DNA of 64,000 bases from Pseudomonadota bacterium (GTDB taxonomy: Bacteria > Bdellovibrionota_C > UBA2361 > OMII01). A program made the translations under genes and the position numbers. Positions 574 to 27,227 of this stretch are shown here, in pieces (positions within the stretch are counted from its first letter, which is position 1; each line of letters begins with the position of its first letter). The notes below the pieces were generated by a model. It was not told the DNA's origin, ran no database searches, and saw only the letters and a program-made list of their open reading frames with translations. The stretch is from contig JBKCMS010000065.1 in the NCBI GenBank assembly GCA_046300175.1, positions 11,270 through 75,269 of the forward strand. The letters run 5' to 3'.

Positions 574-1305
574 ATGAATTCGATATCTGCGCGTCTTGAG
601 AGAGAGCGCGAACATGCACAAGAGATACTCGCGAGTGAGGAGAAGAACTGGAACTGGCACACGCCAGCCGGTAAGATTAGATTCGAGCGTCGTGTAAGAT
701 TTCTCAGCGAAGCTCTTACACCGGAAGTACGGCCAACAGCACGCGTAGTTGAGATAGGAGCGGGCACCGGTACATATTCGGGTCGGTTGGCCGAGGCATA
801 TCCGCTAATTGTTTCGACCGATATAAGTCCAGACCTGTTAGCACGCGCGAGACAGCGCTATCCTCACGTAAGCTTCGAAGTAATGGATGCGCATGGTCTG
901 CCGCTAGAGGATAATTCTCTGGATGCCGTAGTGGGGTGCTCTATTCTGCACCACCTAGAGTGGTCAAGAGCTGTGCGAGAGTACTACCGTGTCTTGAAGC
1001 CGGGAGGAGAGATTCGTTTTAGTGAGCCAAATCTAATGAATCCGCAGATATTTCTGCAGAAAAGCATCCCGTTCCTTAAGAGACTGGCAGGAGATAGTCC
1101 GGATGAGTATGCATTTACGAGATTCGAGATCGCCAAGAGACTATCGCAGGCTGGTTTCTCGAGTATACGGGTGAAGCCATTTGAGTTCCTACATCCAGCG
1201 GTGCCGGAAGCATGGATATCGCGAATAGAAAGGCTTGAGAGCTGGGTCGAGGGTACATTCCTGAGAGAGATCGGCGGTTCCATTCTAATTGAGGCTCGTA
1301 AATGA
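574..1305 (+). CDS. Class I SAM-dependent methyltransferase
   Basis: Motif I VVEIGAGTGTYSGRLA is followed by LKPGGEIRFSEPN, a post-II-like motif. The internal ATG at 574 is preferred over the ORF-track start at 490, which overlaps the upstream membrane gene. Confidence 0.75.
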   Translation: MNSISARLEREREHAQEILASEEKNWNWHTPAGKIRFERRVRFLSEALTPEVRPTARVVEIGAGTGTYSGRLAEAYPLIVSTDISPDLLARARQRYPHVSFEVMDAHGLPLEDNSLDAVVGCSILHHLEWSRAVREYYRVLKPGGEIRFSEPNLMNPQIFLQKSIPFLKRLAGDSPDEYAFTRFEIAKRLSQAGFSSIRVKPFEFLHPAVPEAWISRIERLESWVEGTFLREIGGSILIEARK

Positions 1306-2114
1306 ACGGAACAGTCCAACGTGTTCTTATAGGAGCTTACTCTCTCATTAATAAGACAGGTGTTCTTAGAACAAGACCCTGCAAACTTGTTTTTCGCAAA
1401 TCCTACTTTGCCTATAAGCGTCTATTAGAAGATCCGCTTATAGTCCTAATCAAGGCTGCCCCAAATGTTTGCCGTAACGGGCTAATCATCGATGTAGGAG
1501 CTAACCTAGGATACACTAGCTTGCTGTTTTCACATTATGCGGCTGCGGGCTGTGAAGTAATAGCCTTCGAGCCTGATAGGGCTAATTTTGAGACTCTTAA
1601 AGAAGTTGTTAGAGGTCGGAGTTCTATTCTTCCAGTTTGGGCAGCGGTAGGAGATGAAATTGGAGAGGTGCGCTTTTGGTCTAATCCAGGTCACCACGCA
1701 GATAGCAGAACTGTTACACCTGAGTTTCAAAAAGAGTTGGGAGAGGAAGAGGCGACCTATGCGGTCCCACTAGTGAGTTTGGACGCGTACCTTGAGCGTG
1801 AGAGGCAAGGTTGTGAGGTAGGATTTATTAAGATCGATGTCCAGGGATATGAGGAGAAGGTTTTGCGTGGCTGTGAGGCAACTATCTTGAAGAACCCTGA
1901 TGTCGTTGTCGCTTTCGAATATTCTCCCGAATCTGCCAGGGAGCTAGGATTCTCGCCTGAGTTCCAGCTCTCATTTTTTCTGGAACGCGGGTTTAAGCTC
2001 TATTCACTTAGTAGAGCTGAAGGATTGCTTCCTTTCCGCAGCGAAGATCTCCCCAGATTGCTAGAAGGTCGAGGGTACTGTGACCTTGTGGCTTCACGCA
2101 GCCCTCTTTGCTAG
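1302..2114 (+). CDS. FkbM-family methyltransferase
   Basis: IDVGANLGYTSLLFS is an FkbM-type SAM-binding motif and the length (~270 aa) fits. The start overlaps the upstream methyltransferase stop by 4 nt, which suggests an operon. Confidence 0.7.
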   Translation: MNGTVQRVLIGAYSLINKTGVLRTRPCKLVFRKSYFAYKRLLEDPLIVLIKAAPNVCRNGLIIDVGANLGYTSLLFSHYAAAGCEVIAFEPDRANFETLKEVVRGRSSILPVWAAVGDEIGEVRFWSNPGHHADSRTVTPEFQKELGEEEATYAVPLVSLDAYLERERQGCEVGFIKIDVQGYEEKVLRGCEATILKNPDVVVAFEYSPESARELGFSPEFQLSFFLERGFKLYSLSRAEGLLPFRSEDLPRLLEGRGYCDLVASRSPLC

Positions 2115-2130
2115 TTTTAGCCGAGGCGGG

Positions 2131-3222
2131 CTAAGCGTTTGCTGCCATTGCCCCACCGCTTAGGCGCTCTACCAACTCATCATGAATCTCAACCAAGATA
2201 TCATTTACATTGCGCGTAAGCCGCCAGTTTGGATAATGCTTTTGAAAGTGGCGCACATCAGATACCCACCAGATATGGTCACCAATTCGGTTCGACTCGG
2301 AGTACGCATAGTTCATCGGCCGCCCCGTGATCTGCTCGCATAGGGAGATCGCCTCTGCCATGGAGCAGTGGGAGAATCTGCTGCCGCCGATGTTATACAC
2401 TTCTCCTGAGCGGGGCGCTTTATAGAATTCATTGAAAGCGCTCACCAAATCAAAGCTATGTATATTGTCGCGCACCTGCTTGCCCTTGTATCCGTAAACC
2501 TGATACTGGGTTCCAGTGATGGCACACTTCATTAGGTAAGCGAGAAATCCGTGCAGCTCCGCTCCTGAGTGGCCTGGACCAGTTAGGCAGCCGCCGCGGA
2601 AGCACGCAGTCATCATTCCGAAGTATCTGCCGTATTCTTGTACTAGAACATCAGCGGCAACTTTGGAGGCCCCGAACAGCGAGTGTTTAGTCCTATCGAT
2701 ACTCATCCCCTCGTCGATACCGTGGGTATAGTAAGCGTGCGAAGTGTCGATATCCCACCGCGTGTCATGTTCAACTAGTGGCAAGCTGTTGGGGGTATCG
2801 CCATAGACCTTATTAGTAGAGCAGAAGATAAATACGGCTTCTGGTGCATGGCGCCGGGTCATCTCAAGCATCACTGACGTGCCGTTTGCATTGACTGTAA
2901 AGTCAGTGAATGGTTCCTTAGCCGCCCAATCGTGAGACGGCTGCGCTGCCGTGTGGATCACAAGTGAGATATCAGAGCTGTACTCAGCAAAAATCTTGCC
3001 GATAGCGTCTGCGTCACGGATGTCAGCAGAGTGGTGGGTGAAGGAGTTCCCAAGGTCTGCATGGAGACGCTCTTGAGACCACTGAGTAGACGCCTGTGCA
3101 CCAAAAAAGTAGCTGCGCATGTCGTTGTCTATGCCGACAACGCGCATGCCCTGTTTAGCAAAAAAACGGCACGATTCTGCGCCGATAAGACCTGAGGAGC
3201 CTGTGACGATGACTATACTCAT
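2131..3222 (-). CDS. NAD-dependent nucleotide-sugar epimerase (CDP-paratose/tyvelose 2-epimerase-like)
   Basis: [15 protein letters not shown] is a Rossmann GxxGxxG motif. [21 protein letters not shown] (a YxxxK-like catalytic region) and GKQVRDNIH resemble the Tyv/RfbE-type epimerase family. The start was set at the internal ATG 3222 (MSIVIVTG). Confidence 0.7.
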
Positions 3223-3320
3223 GGGGGAGCCTTTGTTAAACAAACACTCCCCAGGGTAATCCAAACATATTCCTATTTCAACTATGGTAGGAGCATAAAA
3301 AAGCCTATAATCTGGGTCGG

Positions 3321-5525
3321 TTAGCGGCTCAGATCGGCGGATGTGTTGTCACTACTTCTCGTTTTGTATGGTAATCTAGAACTCCACTGCTGCAGCAAGT
3401 GATCCAGGATATTTTTGGCGATGATCTCGTTTCCGGTATCGACAACGTGAAAATGGTCGAGGAATGTAGTTTGAGCATCTAGCGAGTCAAGGGCTGATGA
3501 GAGATCGATGACCGGCACACCATTACGTTGAAGTGTTTTTGATGCCAGCTGCATATCGGGATGAGCACTACTCAGCGCGCACTCGATTGGCTCGCCCGTG
3601 CAATTCGGTTTAGGAGCCCGACTGGACTGTTGATGCGAACTCAAGTGAGGTTGAAGAAAGGCAAGAAAATGTATCGAATTTTTCTTGGTAAGCTCATGTG
3701 CTTCTGAAATGACAGAGGCCCACTGCTGCGCTGTTTCATCGACTAGGCGTCCTCTAATTTCGCTGTCATTCAGATGCGGAAATAAGGGCTGTATTTCCGG
3801 AGTACCTAGAATCTCTATGGTTCGTCGCATGGCAGTGCTGTGCTCCTTAAAAAAAGCGAGTATGGCATTGGCAGGGCTGCGCTTTTGTGCTGCAAAAGAG
3901 GCGCGATCGCTACTATAGATCGTCCCGTGAGGGTTGCCTCTGTACACTCCCTGAACGATATCATTGACCCCGTCGTAGAAGATTACAGCCCGCGGCTGAT
4001 TCCCCTTAGAAAGCTCGATGGCCAATCGGCCTAGCTCCTGTGAAGCTTTGATTGAAGTAGTTCCGAAATTCTTCACCTTCCAGGGAATTGATCGTTGTAC
4101 CAGGAGACGTTGCAAGATGCTTGGCCATGTCAATTCGTTTGGAACCTCGGAGCAATACGTAGTTGACCCACCAAAAACCCAAATTTCACCATCAGCGGGA
4201 TCCAGAGAAGTATCCCATCCAGTAGTTACTCGCACTCCATTTTGAACTGTTATGAAAGGATCGCTTGAATCTTGCCGCAAGATTAAGTTCGTTCCAGCCT
4301 GTTGATACCATCCTACCTGTGCGATGGAGCTAAGCAGGAAATCCTCGGAAAACCATCTTTTAGAGCGATACGCTGGATGATTAACTCGTTTGGCAAACCC
4401 ATCTATGTATCCAGGGGTAGAGAGTAATTTAGAGTATCGCGAGTCGTGGGTTGCACGAGCTCGCACCTTAGAGATGATATCATCTGTAAGGTTTGCCTCT
4501 CCTCGCTCAGCATCAGCTCGGTGCAGCTCGCGGTCTATTGATGGGAAGATAGAATCCACTACCCGAGCGCCTCCTTCCAGTATGAAAAGAAGAGCTGCGG
4601 TGGGGGTGAGAGATAATATGATTGTGAGAAGGACCTTTCGTAGAATTCCATAAGCTATGAATATTCCAGTGCCCAGGAATGCGATGATTACTACTAGGCT
4701 GGTTAAAGCAAATGCTCTGCGATCTGCTCTTGAGCGCTCCTTATCAAGTGGTACCTGGATAGAAGACACTCCTAATCGCTCCAGCCCGAGTGAAAGCATC
4801 GGTTGATATGTTCGATTCGATAAGACTAGAGCATCAATCCGTACATATCCGGCTGGTTCTGCGGAAAAAACTAGCTTCTCAGCTTTGCGGGGTAAGGTTA
4901 TGGAAAATGGGATTGAGGTTGGGCGGGCTTGAGGGTTGAGGCCGTATGTCCATAAAGTGCCGTCACTCGGCTCGTATAGGTCGATTGTCTCCCGTGTATC
5001 GCCGATGCTGAGCATCAACTTCCCGCTTGCACGGCTTTTTAGGAGCATAATCCCGACTTCAGAAGCTTGTAAGTCAGCGCTGAGCTTCGACTTGAGTGTT
5101 GAAGTGCCCGCAAGTGCAGCAAACGGACTCCATGACGGTTGGTTGATCGATTCCCATGATTCGACGCCCGCCAGCTTGTCAAGCGACATTGGTCTTCCAT
5201 CCTGTAAGAGTTGTACCGCATGAACTGCCGTTGCCCCGGACAGAGGGTTTTTTTCCGGTGATATCTCCGCGTTAAATTTTATCCGAAGCGTTTCAGACCT
5301 CGCGTATGGAACCGGTATAATAAACTGATCCAATTGCGAATCTGCAACATCGAGCAGAGTAGCCCTAATTCCGGTTACAGAGAGTCCGTACGTTATTTCA
5401 AGCTTTGCATTAATCGGTTCAGAAGCGATCCAGGATCGAGATACATCGAAAGCTGGGACCGCACAAAACATCGAAAAGACTGCGGCGGCTAATCCAAGTA
5501 ACAATTCCGATCTAGGCGGCTTCAT
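3321..5525 (-). CDS. Large membrane-anchored protein with a C-terminal SGNH/GDSL-hydrolase-like domain, possibly a glycan O-acyl esterase or transferase
   Basis: The N-terminal signal/TM ([19 protein letters not shown]) and internal TM helices are followed by [10 protein letters not shown] (a GDS-like block I) and [10 protein letters not shown] (a GxND block III) in the C-terminal third. Confidence 0.5.
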
Positions 5526-6216: not shown

Positions 6217-7230
6217 ATGGGGTTTAACGATTTAATAAGTGACTATTTAGTCGGGGAAGGTGGGCAAGAAACGCCACGTCACCCCTGTAGAGCCTGTGGT
6301 TCAGATAACACTCAACTGCGCGGTAGTAAGCCGGGCTGGACCTCTGCAACTGAATACTCATTCTATGATTGTCGAGCCTGCGGACTGTTATTTGTGGAAC
6401 CCTTCGCTGGCTTCGAGGTTTATAACGACGCCTATTACCGAGGCGAGGGGCCTGACCCTTTTGTTGACTATGAATCAGAGTATCGCGACTGGCGCTCTAC
6501 AGATCGGCGTATAGAACTCAATGACTGTGTTAGAATCGCGGAGCATTATCTGCGGAGAACGTTAGCAGATAGTGGAGTAACGGCAGAAGGGAGCACAGGA
6601 AGCTCCCCGAATTCTGAGCTAGGAAGACCTGTTCGCTGGCTAGACTTTGGATGTGGGGCCGGAGCGCTCCTCAAATGTTTAAGAGATCGCGGGGAGATTG
6701 CTGGCCGACCGATCAAGATAGTTGGTCACGATGTGGGTTCGTATGCCGAGGCTCTATCGTCCGTAGACCATTTCCAAATCCTCGCTATTGATGCTCTTAA
6801 TCAGCAGCCGGATGAGAGTTATGATGTGATTTCGATGATCGAAGTAATCGAGCACCTACCAGCTCCCGCAGAACAGATTAATTTGATCTCGCGCCTGCTA
6901 AAGCCAGGGGGATTGCTATTACTAACCACGGGCAACCTTCAAAGTCCGATGGCAAAGCGTCAGGGTATCTTCTATGGATACTGCGCCCCAGAGATACACA
7001 TTAGCCTTTTTAGCCCGCAAAGCCTGACTAAGCTTTATGAGCGCGCGGGATTATCATCTTTTCGAGTGAAATATCGGGGAGTGGTGGATTTTAAGGTGCT
7101 GAAAACCCTCAGACATCGACCGGTATTAAAATGTCTCGCACGACTATTGTTGCTGCTGCCGCCGATTCGAAGCATAGTCGATTTTCTGTTCGGAGTATCA
7201 GCGATGCCGTGCGCTATTAAGAGAGCGTAG
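6217..7230 (+). CDS. SAM-dependent methyltransferase with an N-terminal Cys4 zinc-ribbon
   Basis: CRACGSDN...YDCRACGL forms CxxC...CxxC at the N-terminus. It is followed by WLDFGCGAGALLKCL (motif I) and LKPGGLLLLTT. Confidence 0.7.
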   Translation: MGFNDLISDYLVGEGGQETPRHPCRACGSDNTQLRGSKPGWTSATEYSFYDCRACGLLFVEPFAGFEVYNDAYYRGEGPDPFVDYESEYRDWRSTDRRIELNDCVRIAEHYLRRTLADSGVTAEGSTGSSPNSELGRPVRWLDFGCGAGALLKCLRDRGEIAGRPIKIVGHDVGSYAEALSSVDHFQILAIDALNQQPDESYDVISMIEVIEHLPAPAEQINLISRLLKPGGLLLLTTGNLQSPMAKRQGIFYGYCAPEIHISLFSPQSLTKLYERAGLSSFRVKYRGVVDFKVLKTLRHRPVLKCLARLLLLLPPIRSIVDFLFGVSAMPCAIKRA

Positions 7231-8469: not shown

Positions 8470-8544
8470 AATGAGCCCCAGGCTTACAGGTAAGGGAGCA
8501 TGCAATCATGCACTCCCGGCTGATATCTATTATAGCAGGGATTT

Positions 8545-13311: not shown

Positions 13312-13358
13312 TGCTTGGGAGTGGTGCGTTTGCAATAGATTGTTTAACCGTTATTAAC

Positions 13359-17443: not shown

Positions 17444-17458
17444 GGGAACTAGGGAGCC

Positions 17459-18919: not shown

Positions 18920-20388
18920 GGGTAGGTGTATTGTCTCAGGAGATGTATCCCCTTTTCTACGGGGGGATTGGCGTCCAGATGTACCTAGTAGCAAAGTGTC
19001 TTGTAGAAGCTGGGCATTCAGTCGAGTTTTTTACCAAAGGGCTAACTGGAGCCCATCCAGATATGGCTTCTCAGTTACCTGCGGGTATCAGAGTGCATTT
19101 TGTGTCTTCGCACTCTACACCTGACTGGGACTATCTTCCATCACTCTCCTACGCACGCAGAGCTGAGCGACTGGTGAGAAAAGTACATGAGCAAAGTGAG
19201 CTCGATTTGCTTCTGGTGACCGATTTTGGGGGGGAATCATTATTCTTACAGTTAGCGCCACTTCTGAGAAGGGACGGTCGAGATGTTCCTATGGTGATGA
19301 CAATTCACGGAGCATCAAGAGATGTAAATCAAGCTAACCTAAGGACTTTGACGTTAGAGGATGAGATAATCTGCTTGCAGGAAGAGATAGCGATTGCGTG
19401 CAGCTCCGTGTGTCTAGCGCCAAGCCAGATTTACTGGAAGCAAATACTGGAGAGGCTAGATTTAGCCGAGATGCCGGTCCGAATCATTCCTAATTTCTTT
19501 AACCGCGAGCTATTTTCCGACCCTATCCCATCAGTGTCCTCTGGAAGCGAGCACAAAAGCGACCGGAAAAAGATCGTATTCGTAGGGCGACTTGAGTACC
19601 GCAAAGGCATAGATATTCTGCTAGCTGCTTTTGATAGGGTGGCTTCTTCAAGGAGCGATATAGAGCTACATATCGTAGGCCGGGATTTGGAGTGGTCAGA
19701 ATATAAGGGGTACTTTAGCGAGTATTGGCTCAGTAAGTTGTCTCTAGAGGTTGCTCAAATGGTCCACTTTCATGGGCATAAATCACCTGAAGAGCTAAAG
19801 TCATTGATCCAGTCAGCGTATGTAGCGGTATTTCCATCACGATGGGAGCCTTTTGGAATCGTGGCACTAGAGGCGATGGCAACTGGGATGCCAGTAGTAG
19901 TCACAGCCGGCACAGGATTAGCTGAGATAGTCGGTGCTAGGTATGAGCTATTAATCGATCGAGACTCGAGTGATAGCGACCTTGAGCGAGTGCTAAAAAA
20001 AGTAATAGACGACGATGTGCTTCGAGATCGCATCGGTGCGGAATGTAGGATACTAGCCGATGAGTTGTGTAATCGAGCTCAGAGAGATCTATTAGCGGCA
20101 CTTAACGAGCTTCAATCTAGAGGATTGTCGTCTAGTCGTAAGCTTCCCGGAAGATTGATTGCTAGGTTGCAGGCTTCAGTGTTGGAATATGGAGTAGGAT
20201 GTGCGGCCGCGTCGCGAAATGATTCTCATGAATTGATCAAAGCGGTAGAGGTCAGGGACGCAATTATTCAAACCGAGCAGCAAAAGATATTGCAGAAAGA
20301 TACAGAGATTCTTAAGAGAGATGCGATCATATCCGCTCAGCAAGAGGAGATTGCTCGATTAAAAAGGTCACCGCAGGGGACACATTAG
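18916..20388 (+). CDS. GT4-family glycosyltransferase with a C-terminal coiled-coil tail
   Basis: FPSRWEPFGIVALEAMATGMPVV is an EX7E-type GT4 motif. The C-terminus LKAVEVRDAIIQTEQQKILQKDTEILKRDAIISAQQEEIARLK shows a heptad-like pattern. Confidence 0.8.
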   Translation: MRVGVLSQEMYPLFYGGIGVQMYLVAKCLVEAGHSVEFFTKGLTGAHPDMASQLPAGIRVHFVSSHSTPDWDYLPSLSYARRAERLVRKVHEQSELDLLLVTDFGGESLFLQLAPLLRRDGRDVPMVMTIHGASRDVNQANLRTLTLEDEIICLQEEIAIACSSVCLAPSQIYWKQILERLDLAEMPVRIIPNFFNRELFSDPIPSVSSGSEHKSDRKKIVFVGRLEYRKGIDILLAAFDRVASSRSDIELHIVGRDLEWSEYKGYFSEYWLSKLSLEVAQMVHFHGHKSPEELKSLIQSAYVAVFPSRWEPFGIVALEAMATGMPVVVTAGTGLAEIVGARYELLIDRDSSDSDLERVLKKVIDDDVLRDRIGAECRILADELCNRAQRDLLAALNELQSRGLSSSRKLPGRLIARLQASVLEYGVGCAAASRNDSHELIKAVEVRDAIIQTEQQKILQKDTEILKRDAIISAQQEEIARLKRSPQGTH

Positions 20389-20441
20389 GAGTATTTGAAT
20401 CGGCAAGAATGGGTGAACGACGTTTACTGGGGATATAGAAA

Positions 20442-21620
20442 GTGTTAGCGCGGATAGCGGAAAAGTTCCGATTAAGGCGACAGGGTGCTAAAACGCACCA
20501 CATCCTTGTTCTTGTCGAGGAGGAGATTTTCTGTCCAGTGACCTACGTACGTGTCGTCAATCACCTGCAGCATGCTCCGGCTGGGTGGACGTCAGAGATA
20601 TATGTGCTTCCTAGGGAAGCCGACCGTGCCCAGGAGAGGTTAAAGAAAGCCTCGCTGGTTTTCATGGCCCGGTGCGTAACATCTGAAGCTCTGCGGATAG
20701 CATCTCAGGCCCGTAGTGCCTCGGTGCCGGTGGTTTACGATATAGATGATTATCTCTGGCGGCTTCCAGAGTATCTGGATGCCAAGAATGGTGCTTTAGC
20801 AATCGATGAAATCATCCGTCAGGCAACGGTTGTTACAACTCCATCGGAAGCATTAGGAGAATTTATTCGCGAGCGCATTCCCGGCACAGCAGTGGTGCGA
20901 ATATCTAACGCAGCTAATCTGCCTATGCCAGAGTCGCCGACAGCAGAACTGACGGCAGTGATGGCAAATAGCGATTTCTTCCGATTAGCGGGGTCAAAAC
21001 AAGCGCTGTTCGAGGCGATGAAAGAGGCGGCTCGTTCTGCTAATCGCAGAGTATGGTTGTACTATCTCTCCAACGATCCTCCCGAATACTGCACGGACGA
21101 CCCTAATTTGCAGATTATCTGGTGTGGAGTTCGTTCCTATACCTCGTACAGAGCGCTACTGAATAAATTCAAGCCGGACCTAGCATTGGTTCCTCTGCCA
21201 GAGGACCATTTCAGCCGCTACAAGTCTGTGATTAAGTTTGCCGAATTCGGAGCTAGTGGTATCGCGACTATTTTTAGTGACGTGGAACCCTACAGAGGGT
21301 TTGTCAGGCATGGAGTAGATGGTTGGCTGTCAGGGAACTCTCCAGCAGAGTGGCGCCAGACAATGCACGCTGTCTTTTCATTGCCAAACGACGAGCTGCG
21401 CCTTGTTAGTGAACGTGCTCGCGAGAGGTCTCTAGGGCAATTCTCATCAACATCAGTTCGCCAGGAGCTCTTTGCTCTTTTTTCTAGTCTTAAAACCGAA
21501 AAAGTTAGTTATGATCGAGGTGGCATTTCTTTACCTCAGCCGCAGAACTTTACCTTTCAAGAGGCGTACTCCTACATCGTAGATGTTTGGCGTAACTCTA
21601 GTAGCCACAGGAAAGCATAA
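20442..21620 (+). CDS. Hypothetical protein, possibly a divergent GT-B fold glycosyltransferase
   Basis: The C-terminal segment KSVIKFAEFGASGIATIFSDVEPYRGFVRHGVDGWL resembles the GT-B C-terminal nucleotide-sugar binding region. The similarity is weak. Confidence 0.4.
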   Translation: MLARIAEKFRLRRQGAKTHHILVLVEEEIFCPVTYVRVVNHLQHAPAGWTSEIYVLPREADRAQERLKKASLVFMARCVTSEALRIASQARSASVPVVYDIDDYLWRLPEYLDAKNGALAIDEIIRQATVVTTPSEALGEFIRERIPGTAVVRISNAANLPMPESPTAELTAVMANSDFFRLAGSKQALFEAMKEAARSANRRVWLYYLSNDPPEYCTDDPNLQIIWCGVRSYTSYRALLNKFKPDLALVPLPEDHFSRYKSVIKFAEFGASGIATIFSDVEPYRGFVRHGVDGWLSGNSPAEWRQTMHAVFSLPNDELRLVSERARERSLGQFSSTSVRQELFALFSSLKTEKVSYDRGGISLPQPQNFTFQEAYSYIVDVWRNSSSHRKA

Positions 21621-21625
21621 GACTC

Positions 21626-24600
21626 ATGGATAATAGTTGTCCCATTATTACAGGTGTATTGAGCCTACACCGCGAAGGTGAGTTGTTGCGTGACTCATTT
21701 CGATCGCTTCTCGCTGCTTTGCGGCGCCTCGATATTGAAGGTATTGCCTGGGAAATGCTTTGCATTCTGGATAGAAGCGACGACCACACCCGACAGGTAG
21801 TGGCAGAGGAGATGGATAAAAATGAAATTGTGGGAGAACGACTTAAGGTACACGAGGTAAATAGGGGTGACCTGGGTCTGAGCCGCAACGAGGCTGCTCG
21901 ACTCGCTCAGGGACATTTTGTTGGTTTTCTCGATGGCGATGATCTGTGCAGCGCTGAATGGTTATTAAGAGCATACCGGTGCTGTGAACGCGATAGGCGA
22001 TTGATTGCTCATCCAGCAGCTAATATCTATTTCGGCCGCAGTAAGGGAATATTCGTTCATCCCGACCAAGTGCGCTATGACATCCGTTCACTGTTCTTCC
22101 ACAATCTGTGGACCGCACTCTCATTTGCTGCACGAGATGTTTATTGCTCACTGCCCTACGAAGCTAACGAACTGGATAGCGGTTTGGGATATGAGGATTG
22201 GAATTTTAACTGCCGATCGATCGCCGCAGGGTATAAACATGTAGCAGTTCCGCAGACCTGTCACTTTATACGTGTTAAAGCCGAGAAAGAGGGGTTGTGT
22301 GAGCAGAGTGCGGCACAGTTATGTGTAATTAAGCGTGTTCCTCTGTGGAGTCGATTAGCTGAGGAGAGTGAGGTTCTCTCAACAGATATTAGCGACAGTG
22401 AGCTTGCAGGGCTTGTAGCTAATGATCCGCAAAGGATTAATATTCGTCAGCTACCGCAGTGGTTGCGGGATGAGGTTTCCCGCCAAGCTCCGTCCATCGG
22501 AAGTGATGATTCATTGGCTAATATATCTCCCCCCACACTCAATAAGTTGGCTTCGTTTCTGCCGCAACCTGTTCTAAAGCGGATCGGCGCTGGTGTACGT
22601 GAATTGCATTTTATTGCGTCCGCATCTTTGGGCTGCCGTTCAACCGCTGACAAACTAGTGGTTTGTGATGATGCGCTGAATTGGCCAGATACGGAGGAGC
22701 CGTTAGTGCTGGCGCAGCTAGAAAGACATCTGCACGAGAGATTAGTACTGTTTGTAGGCGCGCTCATCACGCAGACGAATTGCTCAAGAATTCACTTATG
22801 GGACAGTATCAAAGCGCCTGCTTTAATAGCCAGACTGCAACAGTTGATTCGCAGATGTAATGTAACTGTTGTATGGCATCAGATGATCCCAGGAGACTTT
22901 CCAGCTCAGGTGAGCTCGCAGGAAATGGATGTTCTTCCTGAAGCATGGCGGCTGCAGTCAGAGGTTAATTCTAGCGCAAAGACGCTATCGTATGGCATAG
23001 ACGCGCCGAGAGAAAAGGATCAACTGCGGGTTCTGTTTCTGATTGATTGCCCGAGAGATCGAAACCCATGGGCCAGCCAGTCGATTTGGTACCGAGTTAT
23101 AGGGCCGGGGCAGGCATTACAGGCGCGCGGGCACGAAGTGATGTTCGGGTTGCTCGGTGAGGAAGACTTTTGGCGGGTAATTATCGAGCGTTATAGGTGT
23201 GATATAGTAGTTACCCATCGACCAGGTAGGTCACGGCACTTTCAGGAGCTGCGACGGATCACTCGACAACGAGGTGTACCCCTGGTTTACGAAGTCGACG
23301 ACAACATCATATCGCCAAGCGAGATACGGCACGCTGAGCATCTGAAATTACGAACCGCTCGTGAATTAGAATCGATCGTTGCTTGGGCGAATGAAAATGT
23401 TCAGTGTTTGAGTGAGTGCGATGCAGCTATTTTTGCGACCCCGGAATTGCAGGCGTGTGCACAAGGAAAACAGCTACATAGTTGGGTGGCGCCGAATTTC
23501 ATACCTGATTTTTATAAGCCCCCATCCGTGCTCCCAGATATAGCTGCTCGAAAATCGGGCCAATTCACCCTATTTTATGGACCAGGGTCACTTGAGCACG
23601 GTGTTTACTTTGAAGCGATCGGCGCCCAATTGGCAGAGGCGCTTAAAGCTATACCGGATTCGAAGTTAGTTTTAGGGGGCGGGCTTTCAGCTCCTACCAC
23701 TTTAGCCAGTATGGCCAATAGAGTGGAACGGATTCCGCGAGTAGCGCCGCAGCTTTATATGCAGTGCCTGTCCAAAGTTGATGTGGTGCTAGCCCCTATC
23801 GTCCTAGACCCATTCTCGAAATGTAAGAGCTGGATTAAGGCATTAGAGGCGACAGCAATGGGTAGCCAGTGGATCGGTTCAGCGCTGCCTGACTATGAAC
23901 GTTTTACCCACAAAACGGCCACAGGTGCGGTGGTAAAGAACGAAGCAGGCTGGGTAGAGGCGATTAAGGAGATGCACTCGCGAGTTGTTTCTGGTCATCG
24001 CGGAGATATTCCGGAGGGTTTCGGCGCTTGGATGTCAGATCATGTTGATGAATACGCAGACCTACTTCGAACAATACGCAATAATCATGGCTCTTCCGCG
24101 CGGGTTATGCCGCAGACTAAGTTTGCAGCTAGCGATCTGGAACAGGAGCCGGTGCATTGTCAGGTATATTGGGCGTGCGCTGCTGGCGGATTTAGTGAGG
24201 AGCGGTCTTTAAGATGCAAGGTAGTCACAGGCCAGTTGTTGACCTACTCATTTAATGTTGAAGCCCCAGGAATATCAAAGTTAAGAATTGATCCGATCGA
24301 TGTAGCTGGGACCACAGAGGTTGTTGAGTTGGTGGTGCGAGGTACAGGAGGTAAGAAAGTCATATTCAGAGCGGACGAACGTGGAGGGTGGGGTAGGCTT
24401 GTTATTGCGGGTGCACAGGCTGGCCAAAGTAGTCTAGGACAACTTCTTCTAGATGGTGATGGTATCGATCCACAGATATATTTACCTACCATGCGAGACC
24501 CGGTTAATTCACTGAGCGTGAGTATAACAATGCGACCTGGTAGACAGGACCAATCAGTATCAAGTACTAGGCACGGACGAAGAGGGTGGACTGAGTGGTT

Positions 24601-24628
24601 CCGTACACGGAGAATGGCAGCAGGGTGA
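21626..24628 (+). CDS. Multidomain glycosyltransferase (N-terminal GT2 domain, central GT-B-like domain, unknown C-terminal domain)
   Basis: The N-terminus PIITGVLSLHREGELL...FVGFLDGDDL carries the GT2 DxD motif. The central region shows a VLFLIDCP...VPLVYEVDDN...FYGPGS GT1/4-like pattern. The protein is 1000 aa. Confidence 0.65.
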   Translation: MDNSCPIITGVLSLHREGELLRDSFRSLLAALRRLDIEGIAWEMLCILDRSDDHTRQVVAEEMDKNEIVGERLKVHEVNRGDLGLSRNEAARLAQGHFVGFLDGDDLCSAEWLLRAYRCCERDRRLIAHPAANIYFGRSKGIFVHPDQVRYDIRSLFFHNLWTALSFAARDVYCSLPYEANELDSGLGYEDWNFNCRSIAAGYKHVAVPQTCHFIRVKAEKEGLCEQSAAQLCVIKRVPLWSRLAEESEVLSTDISDSELAGLVANDPQRINIRQLPQWLRDEVSRQAPSIGSDDSLANISPPTLNKLASFLPQPVLKRIGAGVRELHFIASASLGCRSTADKLVVCDDALNWPDTEEPLVLAQLERHLHERLVLFVGALITQTNCSRIHLWDSIKAPALIARLQQLIRRCNVTVVWHQMIPGDFPAQVSSQEMDVLPEAWRLQSEVNSSAKTLSYGIDAPREKDQLRVLFLIDCPRDRNPWASQSIWYRVIGPGQALQARGHEVMFGLLGEEDFWRVIIERYRCDIVVTHRPGRSRHFQELRRITRQRGVPLVYEVDDNIISPSEIRHAEHLKLRTARELESIVAWANENVQCLSECDAAIFATPELQACAQGKQLHSWVAPNFIPDFYKPPSVLPDIAARKSGQFTLFYGPGSLEHGVYFEAIGAQLAEALKAIPDSKLVLGGGLSAPTTLASMANRVERIPRVAPQLYMQCLSKVDVVLAPIVLDPFSKCKSWIKALEATAMGSQWIGSALPDYERFTHKTATGAVVKNEAGWVEAIKEMHSRVVSGHRGDIPEGFGAWMSDHVDEYADLLRTIRNNHGSSARVMPQTKFAASDLEQEPVHCQVYWACAAGGFSEERSLRCKVVTGQLLTYSFNVEAPGISKLRIDPIDVAGTTEVVELVVRGTGGKKVIFRADERGGWGRLVIAGAQAGQSSLGQLLLDGDGIDPQIYLPTMRDPVNSLSVSITMRPGRQDQSVSSTRHGRRGWTEWFRTRRMAAG

Positions 24629-24636
24629 TCAGATAA

Positions 24637-26331
24637 ATGGGCCGATTTTTGCACTATTTAACGCATCTTCTAGCGATCTTTATCGTAGTGCTGCTGTGGG
24701 CTCTTTGGCCTAGTGGTCAGATAGCCAATATGGCTGCTGATGCGGCGAGCTCAGGAATATCGGCAGATACGATTAGAGCTTATGAGGCAGCTTCACCGGT
24801 GACAGCTCTTCCTATGCCGGCCATATTGTGGGCGGCCGCTTACATTTGTTGTTGCCTGCTGGGCAGAGTCGGTCTCAAAAATAGGTTCTCAGACGGCCTT
24901 GCCAGTAGTTCGGAGATTGGTCCGCCGAGATATGCTGAGGATTATTTAGCCAAGTCTGACGAAGTTACATCTCGCATATCGTCAACTGTAGCAGATGATA
25001 TTTTTGAGACTAATTATAGTCGCCCAGCAGGTGGCACTGCGCGCCAATCTTTTTACCAACGCGTCGCCAAGCAAATCGTTGGCTTCGGGATGGTATGGGC
25101 CTCTCTTGGGGCATTACAATGGGTTTTTGGTAGTCCACTTTTAACTGGCGATTCAATTGTATATCTTCGTGGTGCCCTTAGTCCGTGGTCCCAATTTGGT
25201 GGTCATCACCCATCAGGAAGTGGTTGGCTGTTGTGGTTAGGCAAGCAGTTGGGATTTGCTGTTGGTGCCACTCTGACGGCGGTGGGCGCTATTGAGATAA
25301 GTATTATTCAACAGGTAGTGCGTAGGAATCTCGGCGCTGGAGTGGCATGGGCGGCAGCAGCGGCTTTCATGTTGTACCCAGATTTCCTTCTAATCCGTCT
25401 CTCTCTTTGGTCAGAGCCGGGTATGTTGCTACTGATCTCGATTTTGATTTTTGTGCTCGCTGCCAAGCGTTCAGGCGTAGTTTCGTGGTGTGCAGGACTG
25501 GTTGGCTTGTTTCTGGTGATGAGTGAGATGCGTCACGCTGCGATCTTTCTTCTTCCAGCGCTAGTCATTTCAGTCTCGGCGTGTCTTAGATTGTTTAAGG
25601 ATTGGAAAAGGGCAGGCATCAGCATCTGCACGGTGGCCAGCTGCTTTCTCGGGGGCTGGATGCTGGTGAATATGGCTCGCACTGGCAAACCTTTGGCTCC
25701 AGCAACTGGCTCATTTGAGTGTGTGCATTTCATAGCAGCTTATCACCGGGTTCCTTTCTGCAGTACAGCTCCAGGTATAGCTCTCTGCCAGATGGATTTG
25801 GATGGCGCGTGGCTTAAACAGGGGCTAGGCAATAACCCCGATTTTATCTCACTAGATCGATTTATATTTCGCCCTGATAGTCCTCTTAACAGGCTGGCTC
25901 TAAACAGTGAAGGTTTGTGTGAGCTCTGGAGGTCGATGCGCTCTGAATTAATAGCGAACTACAAAGTTGAGACCGCTCGATTGCTAGCATCTCGCACCGC
26001 TGGCCAATTCGGGTGGTGGCAGATAAGCGAGCGTGGGGCCAATCTGCGTAAAGAGGGGGTGTCGGGAGCCCTGGCTTTTCTCGACGCGGCTCTTGCCGCA
26101 TGCAACTCAGCTGTGTGGGTTCTCTGGAGTGCCTGGGCGGTTGCGTTGCTAAACGGGATCCGAACTCGGCGCGTTTTGAACCCTGTGGTGCTATTTTGCT
26201 TACTTGGAGGCTTAGGCCATGCCGCTGGGATAGCCGTCAACAATCCTTTTTTAGGCCTACGCTATCTGGCTATATCTAAATATCTCGTGTCCTTCGCGGC
26301 AGTGCTGATGATTGGGCGAAGGCGCTCTTAG
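24637..26331 (+). CDS. Polytopic integral membrane protein (candidate glycan polymerase/ligase or lipid-linked glycosyltransferase)
   Basis: It has more than 10 predicted TM helices and large loops. It sits directly after the multidomain GT and has no soluble catalytic motif. Confidence 0.45.
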   Translation: MGRFLHYLTHLLAIFIVVLLWALWPSGQIANMAADAASSGISADTIRAYEAASPVTALPMPAILWAAAYICCCLLGRVGLKNRFSDGLASSSEIGPPRYAEDYLAKSDEVTSRISSTVADDIFETNYSRPAGGTARQSFYQRVAKQIVGFGMVWASLGALQWVFGSPLLTGDSIVYLRGALSPWSQFGGHHPSGSGWLLWLGKQLGFAVGATLTAVGAIEISIIQQVVRRNLGAGVAWAAAAAFMLYPDFLLIRLSLWSEPGMLLLISILIFVLAAKRSGVVSWCAGLVGLFLVMSEMRHAAIFLLPALVISVSACLRLFKDWKRAGISICTVASCFLGGWMLVNMARTGKPLAPATGSFECVHFIAAYHRVPFCSTAPGIALCQMDLDGAWLKQGLGNNPDFISLDRFIFRPDSPLNRLALNSEGLCELWRSMRSELIANYKVETARLLASRTAGQFGWWQISERGANLRKEGVSGALAFLDAALAACNSAVWVLWSAWAVALLNGIRTRRVLNPVVLFCLLGGLGHAAGIAVNNPFLGLRYLAISKYLVSFAAVLMIGRRRS

Positions 26332-27227
26332 CTGCTCGTGCCGGTATGTGCAGAGGATGGTTTCTTGCAGCTCTCAGGCCGGTTTCCAAGTAAGCGACAA
26401 AATCCGTTTATGACAACGCGACGCAACCTGGTGATCGGTGATGAAAGCTTAACGATATCATGGGTAAAGGTTGATTTATCTCGAATACACGGGAATTCAG
26501 GCATACGAGAGCAGCGACCATATGCAAGCAGGCTATCGACAACCTCACGAACGCGCTCCTGCTGTGAATCATCGAATACGATAATAGCTCCGGGTTTAAG
26601 GATCGGGAGCAAATTGTTGAAGTCAGCGAGATAGGTAGTTTTCTCTCCATCAATATGGACAAGGTCCACATCTCTAGCTTGGTGAGCTTTGACATACTCC
26701 GGAACCGCTGTCAGGCAGTCACCGATGATCGTAGATACACGTCCTGGAAAGAGACGTTTTAGGGTATCACAGGCAGCCGGCACATAGACCTCTGGGTGGC
26801 ATAGCGGCTCTGGGGGATAGAATTGAGCAATGTCGTTTGCGACCAGCTTCAGCTTTGGGTTAGCCATCAGACAAAGCAGGGCCGAGTGGCCTCCGTTGAT
26901 ACCGATCTCAAACATAAAAGATGACTTCTTAGCAGCTTCAAAGAGACGTCGGCGCTTTAGGTCGTAAACGGGATAAAGGGGTGCCTGTGAGAATTTATCC
27001 TGAAGATGGTCGTAGAACAGGTTGCCGATGAGAACCTCAGGGTAGCCATGCTGAATAAGGGCACTACTTAGAGCCCGATTGAGCTCGGTGAGATTTCGTT
27101 CAAAATCCTCACTTGAGATCATTTCATCGTACGATTTATATGACATGCCTGCTAAGCTCCATTTAATAGGTGTAGCGATTCTATCTTTTGCGAGCGCGAT
27201 GTCAATTGCAGTGTCTATTCGGGCCAA
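26328..27227 (-). CDS. Class I SAM-dependent O-methyltransferase (TylF/MycF-like)
   Basis: FEIGINGGHSALLCL is a motif I-like sequence and GAIIVFDDS is typical of TylF-like sugar O-methyltransferases. Confidence 0.55.
   Translation of the reverse strand: MARIDTAIDIALAKDRIATPIKWSLAGMSYKSYDEMISSEDFERNLTELNRALSSALIQHGYPEVLIGNLFYDHLQDKFSQAPLYPVYDLKRRRLFEAAKKSSFMFEIGINGGHSALLCLMANPKLKLVANDIAQFYPPEPLCHPEVYVPAACDTLKRLFPGRVSTIIGDCLTAVPEYVKAHQARDVDLVHIDGEKTTYLADFNNLLPILKPGAIIVFDDSQQERVREVVDSLLAYGRCSRMPEFPCIRDKSTFTHDIVKLSSPITRLRRVVINGFCRLLGNRPESCKKPSSAHTGTSS

Follow-up and report, generated by a model that had tools for sequence, protein, structure and literature searches.

The window, a 64-kb stretch of DNA from the MAG of an uncultured Pseudomonadota, holds a cluster of ABC-transporter-dependent glycan assembly. 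A first-pass annotation had placed its main ORFs; all features named there were recovered from the ORF list at correct coordinates, with identities backed by Pfam and NCBIfam. The genes and domains are the following.

574..1305 (+): class I SAM methyltransferase; Methyltransf_11/25, Pfam E=3e-21
1302..2114 (+): FkbM-family methyltransferase; PF05050 E=2.5e-20; TIGR01444 98.6 bits, above cut-off
2131..3264 (-): extended SDR, NAD-dependent sugar epimerase/dehydratase, 377 aa; PF01370 E=1e-35
3321..5525 (-): 734-aa membrane protein, C-terminal SGNH/GDSL hydrolase-type domain; weak PF00657/PF13472, E about 2e-5
6217..7230 (+): Methyltransf_23 methyltransferase, N-terminal CxxC…CxxC zinc-ribbon-like motif; PF13489 E=1.5e-24; no coiled coil
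7627..8505 (-): GT2, polyprenyl-phosphate sugar synthase-like; PF00535 E=2e-26
8545..9522 (-): GHMP sugar-phosphate kinase, HddA-like (LmbP-like); GHMP_kinases N and C domains
9506..10504 (-): Gfo/Idh/MocA oxidoreductase; PF22725/PF01408; 55% identity to L091 homologue
10501..11382 (-): classical short-chain dehydrogenase; PF00106 E=5e-54; 48% identity to L091 homologue
11402..12400 (-): extended SDR NDP-sugar epimerase/dehydratase, 332 aa; PF01370 E=1.5e-48; PF16363 E=5e-42
12580..13311 (+): sugar-1-phosphate nucleotidyltransferase, HddC-like (LmbO-like); PF00483 E=4e-19
13311..13976 (+): SIS-domain ketose-phosphate isomerase, GmhA-like (LmbN-like); PF13580 E=9.5e-11
13955..14509 (+): HAD-IIIA sugar bisphosphate phosphatase, GmhB-like (LmbK-like); TIGR01656/TIGR01662 above cut-offs
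14559..15350 (+): transaldolase inside the sugar cassette; TIGR02134 313.9 bits vs cut-off 282
15467..16438 (+): Methyltransf_23 methyltransferase, N-terminal zinc-ribbon-like motif; PF13489 E=1.3e-25; no coiled coil
16586..17443 (+): Wzm, ABC-2 permease; PF01061 ABC2_membrane E=5e-22; TM-like segments across residues 46-276
17459..18919 (+): Wzt, ATPase with C-terminal carbohydrate-binding domain (CBD), 486 aa; ABC_tran (residues 88-219) and Wzt_C
18443..18838 (+): Wzt CBD, residues 329-460; PF14524 Wzt_C E=9.3e-20
18916..20388 (+): GT4cc, retaining-type GT4 with C-terminal helical stalk, candidate terminator/ruler; Glycos_transf_1 E=7e-37
20149..20367 (+): GT4cc helix, single and uninterrupted, residues 412-484; heptad periodicity; conserved tip motif ILxRDxxI…EIxxL
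20442..21620 (+): divergent GT-B-like protein of the core module, 392 aa; weak Glyco_trans_4_4 1.7e-4, Glyco_trans_1_4 0.03
21626..24628 (+): 1000-aa multidomain GT, candidate polymerase; GT2 E=5e-14; Glyco_trans_1_4 E=1e-4
24158..24538 (+): LRxDP…DPQ beta-sandwich domain, residues about 845-971 of the 1000-aa protein; homologue alignment
24637..26331 (+): polytopic membrane protein, 564 aa, divergent GT-C-fold glycosyltransferase candidate; TM scan, weak profiles
26328..27227 (-): Methyltransf_24 / O-methyltransferase-like enzyme; PF13578 E=6e-11; PF01596 (Methyltransf_3) E=2.5e-6
27271..28755 (-): secreted protein, 494 aa; N-terminal hydrophobic segment

The plus-strand operon is translationally coupled and leads from sugar-activation genes through wzm/wzt and four cytoplasmic GT modules to the membrane GT-C-like protein; the start of GT4cc and the stop of wzt share 4 bases. 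The ORF of the first methyltransferase opens at TTG 490 and runs at its 3' end into the start of the following gene (1302). The upstream ORF ends at 569, which favours ATG 574 as the start. Within the 64-kb window, there was no sign of an initiating phosphoglycosyltransferase, a ligase or a GtrA-like flippase. The 494-aa secreted protein has no Pfam or NCBIfam match to a known domain, and its membership in the cluster is uncertain; the P0004 contig has an unannotated 460-aa gene at the equivalent position, a likeness by position alone. For all cluster products, we infer the functions from sequence.

The assignment to the ABC-transporter-dependent pathway is borne out by the domain matches of Wzm and Wzt. 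The Wzt nucleotide-binding domain matches TarH and Aquifex aeolicus Wzt at ~1e-59. Its C-terminal extension, initially put at ~200 aa, measures ~195 aa and is genuine, as the HMM annotation proposed for this region gives PF14524 at 71.5 bits (cut-off 30.4). Moreover, a profile of the domain recovers the solved Wzt CBDs of A. aeolicus (8dky/6o14, 1e-11), R. terrigena (5hno, 5e-5), and E. coli O9a (2r5o, 1e-3). The CBD is 66% identical to that of the related locus L087 and 58% to that of Desulfofustis. These matches establish the Wzt C-terminus as a bona fide CBD. Wherever such a domain has been studied, it marks glycans that need a cap before export (PMC11231755).

The first-pass annotation sought the cap among five SAM methyltransferases, all of which are confirmed by Pfam. 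In NCBIfam, the product of the gene at 574 has generic UbiE/BioC-like matches only. The enzyme at 26328 had been labeled TylF-like, but it matches PF13578 and PF01596, with PF05711 (TylF) absent among its Pfam matches. The methyltransferase encoded immediately upstream of wzm (15467) has a weak, generic match to the methyltransferase domain of WbdD (E about 4e-3). WbdD-type terminators combine a methyltransferase, with or without a kinase, and a coiled coil on one polypeptide. By Pfam and a periodicity scan, none of the five (0/5) has a kinase domain or a coiled coil. Therefore, the proposed analogy to methyl capping by WbdD fails, and a WbdD-like methyl cap is not supported, the coil being found only on the GT4. 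What stands of the WbdD/WbdA-like logic is a cap, export gated by a carbohydrate-binding module, and a coiled-coil protein, built, as had been claimed, from parts that are not orthologous to WbdD and WbdA.

The GT4 was modeled by AlphaFold as a GT-B fold (residues 1-402) followed by one helix (412-484), at pLDDT 92 for the whole model and 94-97 along the helix; its Foldseek matches are MshA, BshA, PimA, and WaaG. A C-terminal coil-like helix is thus present as first noted, but it spans 73 residues, not ~45. The tail has no Pro or Gly, and its hydrophobicity, compared with shuffles, has a period of 7 (p about 0.003-0.006) and none of 3.5, so that the suggested coiled-coil prediction yields a heptad helix, but an atypical one, with one Ile per heptad and an R-D pair. 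The tail past the GT-B fold is 85-90 aa long here and in P0002, P0003, and P0005, 126 aa in P0004, about 200 aa in L169, 211 aa in L091, and 293 aa in P0007; the longer tails (P0007, L091) are canonical coiled coils with period 3.5 (p<0.001), and the tip motif is kept despite the variation in length. The periodicity scan found no convincing coil in any other cluster protein, methyltransferases included.

In all characterised systems, the coiled-coil protein is the terminator (PMC11231755). Since the coil here is on the GT4, by analogy with this paradigm GT4cc would occupy the terminator position, and a terminating GT4 with a ruler is the best reading of the cluster. For the same reason, namely that the ruler-like coil sits on a glycosyltransferase and not on a methyltransferase, a sugar is a more probable cap than a methyl group. 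Several observations speak against this role of GT4cc. As a ruler, the coil reaches about 11 nm at most, which is short; it is atypical in having a polar residue at the would-be d position, and part of it (412-440) may pack on the GT domain. As a capper, GT4cc is the least conserved core protein, with 46% identity to its L087 homologue, where the other core proteins reach 61-83% and the CBD 66%; this is naively unexpected if its product is the CBD ligand. Finally, the homologues in L090 and L091 have no wzm/wzt within the available 10-20 kb, so the family is not exclusive to CBD-gated export. The Methyltransf_24 enzyme is conserved together with the core module and could instead be the true capping enzyme: it is 76% identical to the L087 homologue, occurs also on the P0004 and P0125 contigs, and is the sole methyltransferase seen on the contigs related in the core module, each of which ends at or within wzm and so covers none of the region of the four upstream methyltransferases. 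A terminating GT4 remains our preferred reading, given the position of the coil.

Two further core proteins would build the chain. The 392-aa GT-B-like protein is 70% identical to its L087 homologue. The 1000-aa protein was correctly described as a GT2 plus GT-B multidomain enzyme, with the GT2 recognized by Pfam and both folds by Foldseek, which matched GT-A and GT-B enzymes including TarP, GlgM, and BshA; the Glyco_trans_1_4 match is under the Pfam cut-off, and the AlphaFold model used is of low confidence (pLDDT 60). Its layout is GT-A (GT2), an unassigned alpha/beta region, GT-B, and a C-terminal beta-sandwich, and eight homologues were found in total. The beta-sandwich, not mentioned in the earlier description, has no Pfam match and no PDB sequence match, and is an undescribed domain. 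By hhalign, it is unrelated to Wzt_C.

Also previously overlooked was a conserved sugar cassette with a transaldolase. The L091 homologues of the GHMP kinase, the 332-aa SDR, and the SIS isomerase are 62%, 68%, and 70% identical, respectively, and the L091 cassette also contains the transaldolase and a homologue (31%) of the 6217 methyltransferase. The same cassette and/or an FkbM methyltransferase adjoins GT4cc homologues in L089, L090, and L091; in particular, FkbM genes lie directly upstream in L089 and L090, and the transaldolase gene is adjacent in L089. The predicted polymannose- or polyheptose-like glycan is half right: the cassette is heptose-like, but it includes the transaldolase, and scores fall far under the heptose equivalog cut-offs (GHMP kinase to HddA, E=8.5e-47, 160 bits vs 600; nucleotidyltransferase to HddC, 59 vs 300; SIS isomerase to GmhA, 55 vs 209; the phosphatase also scores under the cut-offs of the GmhB models). 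Family by family, the cassette fits the lincosamide GDP-octose route as well as the GDP-heptose one.

Two further genes absent from the first-pass annotation encode the candidate divergent GT-C membrane enzyme and its likely partner, the GT2 resembling polyprenyl-phosphate-sugar synthases (7627), the last gene of the minus-strand sugar-modification operon. The best NCBIfam models of the latter are AglJ, ArnC, dolichyl-phosphate hexose transferase, and PpgS, all under cut-offs. The 564-aa membrane protein has 33 relatives among 1.84 billion representatives; PMT_2 is matched by three of 23 relatives, the profile matches PIG-M (E=1e-3), and hhalign links it to a Desulfofustis membrane protein (E=1.7e-5). 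The profile matches behind the GT-C assignment (E about 1e-3 to 1e-5) are weak. The 734-aa SGNH-domain protein, with TM-like segments at residues 5-30 and 270-321, is a candidate glycan O-acyl modifying enzyme. The 377-aa SDR has 67% identity to a protein encoded close to wzt in Nostoc linckia (L067).

Taken together, we see an even chance that the cluster assembles a capped surface glycan of the O-antigen type, with GT4cc as terminator with a ruler and export licensed by the CBD. The transaldolase, SIS isomerase, GHMP kinase, HAD phosphatase, nucleotidyltransferase, epimerase/dehydratase, Gfo/Idh/MocA oxidoreductase, and SDR would produce an NDP-activated higher-carbon sugar, a heptose or octose derivative. 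At the cytoplasmic face of the membrane, the 392-aa and 1000-aa proteins would extend the chain on undecaprenyl diphosphate until GT4cc ends its growth by placing a distinct sugar at the non-reducing end, probably the one made by the cassette and possibly O-methylated. The 73-residue helix is predicted to oligomerise into a stalk, which would set the distance from the terminating active site to the polymerase and thus act as a short molecular ruler. The capped end would be bound by the Wzt CBD, licensing export through Wzm/Wzt. In the periplasm, the GT-C-like protein may decorate the chain with a polyprenyl-phosphate sugar from the AglJ/ArnC-like GT2, and the SGNH-domain protein may modify acyl groups. 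The putative targets of the five methyltransferases are sugar hydroxyls.

The order Wzm, Wzt with CBD, GT4cc, GT-B-like, 1000-aa GT, GT-C-like, and opposite-strand Methyltransf_24 recurs in four related contigs, and in L169 a long-coil GT4cc homologue lies directly 5' of a homologue of the 1000-aa GT. In the Desulfofustis locus, wzt is likewise followed immediately by the gene for a GT4 of the GT4cc family, and a dual-GT protein and a GT-C-like protein are encoded as well; no methyltransferase or sugar cassette is present among the genes scanned there, a stretch of about 12 kb that begins with the epimerase and ends with the last GT. By contrast, the cyanobacterial loci L025 and L078 encode WbdD(O8)-like proteins with methyltransferase and coil right after wzt; as true WbdD(O8)-like proteins do exist in this position, the contrast with the window is real. 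In the terminator position, GT4cc would parallel the terminating GTs of Klebsiella pneumoniae, O12 WbbB and O4 ORF7; in the O4 system, the terminating GT is a stand-alone protein that ends in a coil (PMC11231755).

The first-pass annotation had read this cluster as the source of a terminally methylated, length-regulated glycan assembled by parts non-orthologous to those of known systems. Each feature behind that reading, including the five SAM methyltransferases and the 1000-aa GT2 plus GT-B protein, was confirmed by an ORF map and by Pfam and NCBIfam scans. Start/stop overlaps in the ORF map define a minus-strand operon, a plus-strand operon and a short pair of methyltransferase genes.

Genes of the glycan cluster (window coordinates; strand where the operon or gene was assigned to one)
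574-1305, SAM methyltransferase, first gene of the short pair
1302-2114, SAM methyltransferase of the FkbM type, second gene of the short pair
6217-7230, SAM methyltransferase
7627-8505, minus, GT2
8545-9522, minus, GHMP kinase
9506-10504, minus, Gfo/Idh/MocA oxidoreductase
10501-11382, minus, SDR
11402-12400, minus, epimerase/dehydratase
from 12580, plus, nucleotidyltransferase
from 13311, plus, SIS isomerase
from 13955, plus, HAD phosphatase
14559-15350, plus, transaldolase
15467-16438, plus, SAM methyltransferase of the Methyltransf_23 family (MT23_c)
16586-17443, plus, Wzm (PF01061, E=5e-22)
17459-18919, plus, Wzt, 486 aa (PF00005, E=4e-23; NBD ending near residue 290)
18916-20388, plus, GT4 with a C-terminal helical stalk (GT4cc)
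between GT4cc and the next gene, plus, GT-B-like protein of 392 aa
21626-24628, plus, 1000-aa protein (GT1000) with GT2 (GT-A), GT-B and a C-terminal beta-domain
24637-26331, plus, membrane protein of 564 aa
26328-27227, minus, SAM methyltransferase of the Methyltransf_24 family

The exporter genes code for an ABC-2 permease adjoining a Wzt/TagH-type ATPase, as assigned by Pfam, and the Wzt NBD matches TarH and A. aeolicus Wzt at ~1e-59. The C-terminal extension of Wzt, previously likened to the terminal-residue-binding domain of O-antigen Wzt proteins, is indeed a carbohydrate-binding domain (CBD): residues 329-460 match Wzt_C (PF14524) with E=9.3e-20 and 71.5 bits against a cut-off of 30.4. 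Moreover, a seven-sequence CBD profile recovered solved Wzt CBDs from A. aeolicus (8dky/6o14, 1e-11), R. terrigena (5hno, 5e-5) and E. coli O9a (2r5o, 1e-3), and therefore the domain is related to known carbohydrate-binding modules. The profile was needed for this, as a single-sequence phmmer search of the PDB with the Wzt C-domain recovered no solved Wzt CBD. A homologue search with the CBD alone yielded four short fragments without usable context. In a genome scan with the entire Wzt, the best match was 50% identical (Desulfofustis), matches from Bacillus and Paenibacillus demonstrated that CBD-bearing Wzt also occurs in Gram-positives, and synteny beyond Wzm/Wzt was seen in none of the 80 loci. 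In a 2024 study of the K. pneumoniae O4 and O7 antigens, a CBM on Wzt goes together with terminated glycans (PMC11231755).

A CBD-bearing exporter raises the question of the cap. Methyl and phosphomethyl caps are established Wzt CBD ligands (PMC11231755; PMC3482155), and the cluster has five methyltransferases of 243-337 aa within ~27 kb. A stand-alone methyltransferase could thus add an O-methyl cap and the CBD could read the methylated end, with GT4cc being a chain-building enzyme whose coil acts as a scaffold or spacer like the WbdD coil. The likeliest enzymes would be the Methyltransf_24 at 26328-27227, which is kept with the core module in relatives (76% identity), or MT23_c just upstream of wzm; Methyltransf_23-type enzymes also recur right after wzt in several cyanobacteria. 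However, in every characterised system the terminator is carried by a coiled-coil protein (PMC11231755), and heptad or coil segments are absent from all five methyltransferases, in which Pfam scans found no kinase domain either. The missing coil is meaningful, since the cyanobacterial methyltransferases encoded directly after wzt (L025:11621-12727 and L078:11294-12370) carry their own coiled coil of ~100 aa and an amphipathic 'SKFWKLR' end; from their sequences, these two are apparent WbdD(O8)-like terminators outside enterobacteria. Next, MT23_c matches the methyltransferase domain of WbdD (4azw and related entries) at E ~4e-3, with UbiG and similar generic class I enzymes ranking higher, and hence we rejected a specific relationship to WbdD. 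Finally, no methyltransferase was seen among the scanned cluster genes of Desulfofustis, whose CBD is 58% identical to the one in the window, which weakens the case for methyl as the conserved CBD ligand. We regard capping by a stand-alone methyltransferase as doubtful, though a serious contender, and the WbdD-like version of methyl-capping favored earlier is not the best fit.

The methyltransferases at 6217 and 15467 share an N-terminal CxxC…CxxC motif. In relatives, the Methyltransf_24 protein is ~480 aa long and has an extra N-terminal class I methyltransferase-like domain (e.g. L087:9534-10970), the window protein (299 aa) corresponding to the C-terminal domain only.

The coil in this cluster is on GT4cc, whose gene start overlaps the wzt stop. 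The AlphaFold model of GT4cc (55-sequence alignment, pLDDT 92) has a GT-B fold at residues 1-402 and one unbroken helix of 73 residues at 412-484 (pLDDT 94-97). By Foldseek, the catalytic part resembles MshA, methylmannose-polysaccharide mannosyltransferase, BshA, PimA and WaaG, all of them retaining GT4 enzymes. The tail contains neither Pro nor Gly, and E, K, R, D and Q comprise 51% of its residues. We assessed the coil by Fourier periodicity with shuffled controls and by AlphaFold, having dropped a simple heptad-scoring scan that did not tell coils apart from ordinary helices. The tail hydrophobicity has a period of 7 (p ~0.003-0.006), while the 3.5-residue harmonic is absent because each heptad has one Ile and then an R-D pair.

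The tail varies in length among relatives. Four relatives with 45-56% identity to GT4cc keep the same tail, and the tail of the homologue P0004 is ~35 residues longer than that in the window. In L091 (34% identity), L169 (39%) and P0007 (33%), the tails reach ~200-290 residues and, in P0007 and L091, have the canonical coiled-coil periodicity (p<0.001). The long tails finish with the same 'ILxRDxxI…EIxxL' tip, and across the homologues the tail spans 85 to 293 aa with the tip conserved. JGI labels on GT4cc fragments and relatives, assigned independently, are DUF3084 and CwlO-like coiled coils. A metagenome scan with the GT4cc alignment, which missed the relatives with 46-56% identity, yielded the loci L089, L090 and L091. 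Judged from sequence, GT4cc and its relatives, with a catalytic head joined to a conserved tip by a spacer that varies in length, have the architecture expected of a molecular ruler.

Alternatively, there may be no ruler: GT4cc could be an ordinary chain-building GT4 whose helix serves only for oligomerisation or membrane association, and the terminator-to-polymerase ratio could set the chain length kinetically, unless length is not controlled at all. This would agree with the short window helix and its lack of canonical periodicity, with GT4cc homologues that have no wzt nearby, and with relatives where the coil is replaced, by an 'LRxDP…DPQ' beta-domain in P0009 and P0010, and by a short tail or a beta-domain in the coil-free GT4 of Desulfofustis. 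Still, a conserved tip on tails of ~85 to 290 residues, the long ones having canonical periodicity, is the signature of a spacer rather than of a fixed oligomerisation motif, and the position of GT4cc, translationally coupled to the CBD-bearing wzt, is conserved. On balance, the absence of a ruler seems unlikely. Both its position and its architecture, with a coil on the GT4 and none on the methyltransferases, make GT4cc the terminator candidate. We infer that GT4cc terminates the chain and that the cap is a glycosyl residue, methylated or not.

The genes around GT4cc form a module found on four related contigs and comprising Wzm, Wzt with the CBD, GT4cc, the GT-B-like protein, GT1000, the membrane protein and, on the opposite strand, Methyltransf_24. 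Identities to the locus L087 are 83% for Wzm, 77% for Wzt (66% for the CBD alone), 46% for GT4cc, 70% for the GT-B-like protein (392 aa), 61% for GT1000, 53% for the membrane protein (564 aa) and 76% for Methyltransf_24. Thus GT4cc is the least conserved core member, which counts against a tight pairing of the CBD and the terminator. Desulfofustis glycolicus (L002) is the only cultured relative. Its locus has the order epimerase, Wzm, Wzt, GT4, GT4+GT2 fusion, 714-aa membrane protein, GT2 and GT4; the CBD is as conserved as the NBD, and the GT4 after Wzt belongs to the GT4cc family (32% identity). The sugar-activation cassette was likewise not found among the Desulfofustis cluster genes scanned.

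The contigs of L001, L087, P0004 and P0125, from four independent metagenome assemblies, are each broken at wzm or shortly before it, a hint that the sugar and methyltransferase genes upstream vary from strain to strain; such variability is usual in O-antigen loci.

GT1000, for which 8 homologues were found, had been considered a WbdA-like polymerase. Its low-confidence AlphaFold model (pLDDT 60) was used just for domain boundaries and broad GT-A/GT-B matches. The modules are GT2, GT-B and a beta-domain and not tandem GT4 mannosyltransferase modules, and no WbdA-like match was found in the PDB sequence search, so GT1000 is not of the WbdA type. Pfam gave no support for a hidden kinase or methyltransferase in the unassigned region of residues 231-465, as in the K. 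pneumoniae O7 protein ORF6. In L169, a long-coil GT4cc homologue lies directly upstream of a GT1000 homologue, linking the two families.

The C-terminal domain of the GT1000 family (24158-24538 in the window) is a beta-sandwich of ~130 residues with invariant 'R.DP' and 'DPQ' motifs. The same 'LRxDP…DPQ' domain ends the GT4cc relatives P0009 and P0010 and, in Desulfofustis, follows the first TM helix of the GT-C-like protein (L002:15400-17541, residues ~50-180). It had no match in Pfam and no PDB sequence match, and seems to be an undescribed domain that is shared by cytoplasmic glycosyltransferases and a GT-C-like membrane protein and may serve in glycan binding. By hhalign the domain is unrelated to Wzt_C, which led us to discard a Wzt-type CBM on the polymerase.

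The 564-aa membrane protein has no Pfam match and belongs to a rare family, with 33 relatives among 1.84 billion representatives. Four cysteines in a loop are invariant across the family, and its 'PDS' and 'RHxGIF' motifs are conserved. Its profile weakly matches the GT-C enzyme PIG-M (E=1e-3), three of 23 relatives match PMT_2 (best 1.7e-6), and hhalign aligns the protein with the Desulfofustis 714-aa protein at E=1.7e-5, with shared 'PDS…W.P…RH.GIF' motifs. BLASTP detected no similarity to the PMT_2 protein of L091. The protein is best read as a divergent GT-C. The GT2 at 7627-8505, the last gene of the sugar-modification operon, is closest to AglJ, ArnC, dolichyl-phosphate hexose transferase and PpgS, below the NCBIfam cut-offs; these are polyprenyl-phosphate sugar synthases. 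The co-occurrence of the GT-C-like protein with this synthase-like GT2 suggests that the exported chain may be decorated in the periplasm. As in three-component extracytoplasmic glycosylation (synthase, flippase, GT-C), the window has a synthase-like GT2 and a weakly matching GT-C-like protein, but no small ORF of the GtrA-like flippase kind was found in the intergenic gaps examined, and the GT-C-like family has very few, divergent members.

The GT-C-like protein could have a different role if the product were not an LPS O-antigen but another Und-PP-built glycoconjugate, protein-linked, S-layer-type or capsule-like, with this protein transferring or anchoring the polymer. It is an obligate member of the core module; within the window there are no genes for a WaaL-type ligase, a WecA/WbaP initiator or the LPS core; and CBD-bearing Wzt occurs in Bacillus and Paenibacillus. 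On the other hand, NCBI labels the MAG as Pseudomonadota, where Wzm/Wzt-CBD systems are classically of the O-antigen type and the genes for the ligase and the initiator are usually found at other genomic locations. Further, the donors of PMT_2/PIG-M-like GT-C enzymes are polyprenyl-phosphate monosaccharides, for which a matching synthase-like GT2 is present. We therefore find a non-O-antigen product very unlikely; a Gram-positive-type S-layer glycan in particular was rated low, given the Pseudomonadota label and the Tad/RcpC genes.

The donor of GT4cc may be sought in the sugar-activation cassette upstream of the exporter. A nine-gene block including the Methyltransf_23 gene recurs in L091 with 31-70% identity, beside the long-coil GT4cc homologue. 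In L089, the transaldolase gene comes right after the GT4cc homologue, and in L089 and L090 an FkbM methyltransferase precedes it. As the GT4cc family is genomically tied to the cassette, it probably uses the cassette sugar as its donor. The L091 cassette ends with a 696-aa protein without a Pfam match (L091:18516-20606), the second coiled-coil protein of that locus; its C-terminus is a coiled coil plus 'SRSWKLANHLR', resembling the tails of the cyanobacterial methyltransferases.

The cassette encodes the same four enzyme families, likewise clustered, as the heptose route (GmhA/HddA/GmhB/HddC). However, the HddA-, GmhA-, GmhB- and HddC-like scores are far below the NCBIfam equivalog cut-offs (160/600, 55/209, 56/250 and 59/300, respectively), whereas the transaldolase is above its cut-off (TIGR02134) and integral to the cassette. 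A literature search found no report of a transaldolase in a heptose polysaccharide cassette. The other members are an extended SDR, a Gfo/Idh/MocA oxidoreductase and a classical SDR. The lincosamide GDP-octose route proceeds through LmbR, N, P, K and O, and then through LmbM, L, Z and S (PMC4351081, PMC12945683). Matched by family and not by Lmb sequence, the cassette shares with its first part the transaldolase, SIS isomerase, GHMP kinase, HAD phosphatase and nucleotidyltransferase, and with its second part the SDR epimerase, dehydrogenase and oxidoreductase. Unlike the Lmb route, which serves an antibiotic, the cassette has no aminotransferase (LmbS) and occurs in a polysaccharide context. 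Since the transaldolase is integral and conserved, giving this family-by-family match, the sugar could be C8 rather than C7; an octose is a tentative suggestion, with the odds against it. The full combination, in which GT4cc represents an unrecognised class of terminator made of a retaining GT4 and a tunable coil ruler, and the cap, perhaps together with the periplasmic side branch, is an O-methylated octose from a transaldolase-initiated, Lmb-like NDP-octose pathway, is quite improbable as a whole.

Other features of the window may lie outside the glycan pathway. The 690 bp at 5526-6216, without a convincing ORF, separate an SGNH-membrane gene from a divergently transcribed methyltransferase gene and are probably a shared promoter region; Rfam had no match in the cluster, this region included. 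At 27271-29997, a secreted protein of 494 aa, in which no domain was detected, adjoins an MFS transporter; the P0004 contig has an unannotated 460-aa gene at the equivalent place beside an MFS gene, the two being likened by position alone. Downstream of the cluster are pheST, a Ser/Thr-kinase/PP2C/FHA group, a Tad pilus locus, an FHIPEP protein and tig-clpP-clpX-lon, i.e. an ordinary chromosomal context. The PP2C phosphatase, FHA-like protein, Ser/Thr kinase and ParA/MinD-like ATPase at 35273-39889 immediately precede the Tad locus and may act as its regulatory module. The Tad genes (CpaB, CpaF, TadB and TadC, 40954-45455) are directly followed by an FHIPEP (FlhA-type) export-gate protein (45485-47581) and then by a 769-aa protein without a Pfam match (47616-49925), no other flagellar or T3SS genes being visible within the window.

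Taken together, a capped glycan, CBD-gated ABC export, a coiled-coil element of length control and non-orthologous parts are retained from the initial reading, and WbdD-like methyl-capping is not. For this uncultured genome, we infer that the anatomy and the published paradigm are better matched by a GT4 that terminates the chain and carries a coiled-coil stalk of tunable length. To our knowledge, nearly everything established about the combination of a cap, CBD-gated export and a coiled-coil ruler comes from a few enterobacterial serotypes, and the terminators we know of are methyltransferases, kinase-methyltransferases and Kdo transferases. The GT4 GT-B fold is the commonest glycosyltransferase fold, and a GT4 in the coiled-coil position, if true, would mean that a ruler module can join it. 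The natural series of tails, from ~85 to 290 residues, would offer ready variants for studying how coil length sets polymer length. With the transaldolase cassette, one can ask concretely whether sugars with more carbons than heptoses are built into surface glycans, and an octose, if true, would place a lincosamide-type route in a bacterial cell-surface polysaccharide. The tail-length series and the possible octose are open leads. The rare GT-C-like family and the 'LRxDP…DPQ' domain are unannotated recurring parts whose description would improve the annotation of environmental glycan loci.

Compared to the E. coli O9a and K. pneumoniae O3 and O5 systems (WbdD, WbdA and Wzt-CBD), the window is likewise ABC-transporter-dependent, with a CBD from the same Pfam family, one cytoplasmic protein whose catalytic domain is followed by a coiled-coil tail, and a separate multi-module glycosyltransferase as the likely polymerase. 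Unlike in WbdD, the coil is much shorter and is carried by a GT4 rather than by a methyltransferase or a kinase-methyltransferase; the kinase is absent, the methyltransferases are stand-alone and coil-free, and the sequence likeness is limited to the generic methyltransferase fold. The candidate polymerase combines GT-A and GT-B, as opposed to the tandem GT4 mannosyltransferase modules of WbdA.

In K. pneumoniae O7, ORF6 is a methyltransferase-kinase with a coiled coil, two GT2 modules and an Ig-like CBM. GT1000 is similar to it in being a large multidomain assembly protein that combines glycosyltransferase modules with an extra beta-sandwich domain, but it lacks the coil, the methyltransferase and the kinase, and its beta-domain is C-terminal, with no Pfam or PDB relatives detected.

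A similar layout is that of K. pneumoniae O4 ORF7 (GT137), a stand-alone terminating glycosyltransferase with a C-terminal coil, and O12 WbbB (GT99): in both, the terminator is a glycosyltransferase whose catalytic module is N-terminal to the coil (PMC11231755), as in GT4cc. Also as in the window, the O4 polymerase modules are on a separate protein, and the Wzt CBD gates export. By contrast, GT4cc, a candidate terminator only, has the GT-B fold of a retaining-type GT4 and not the Kdo transferase fold, and its donor is probably NDP-heptose or NDP-octose and not CMP-Kdo. By its fold, GT4cc would represent another enzyme family doing the job of the GT99 and GT137 terminators.
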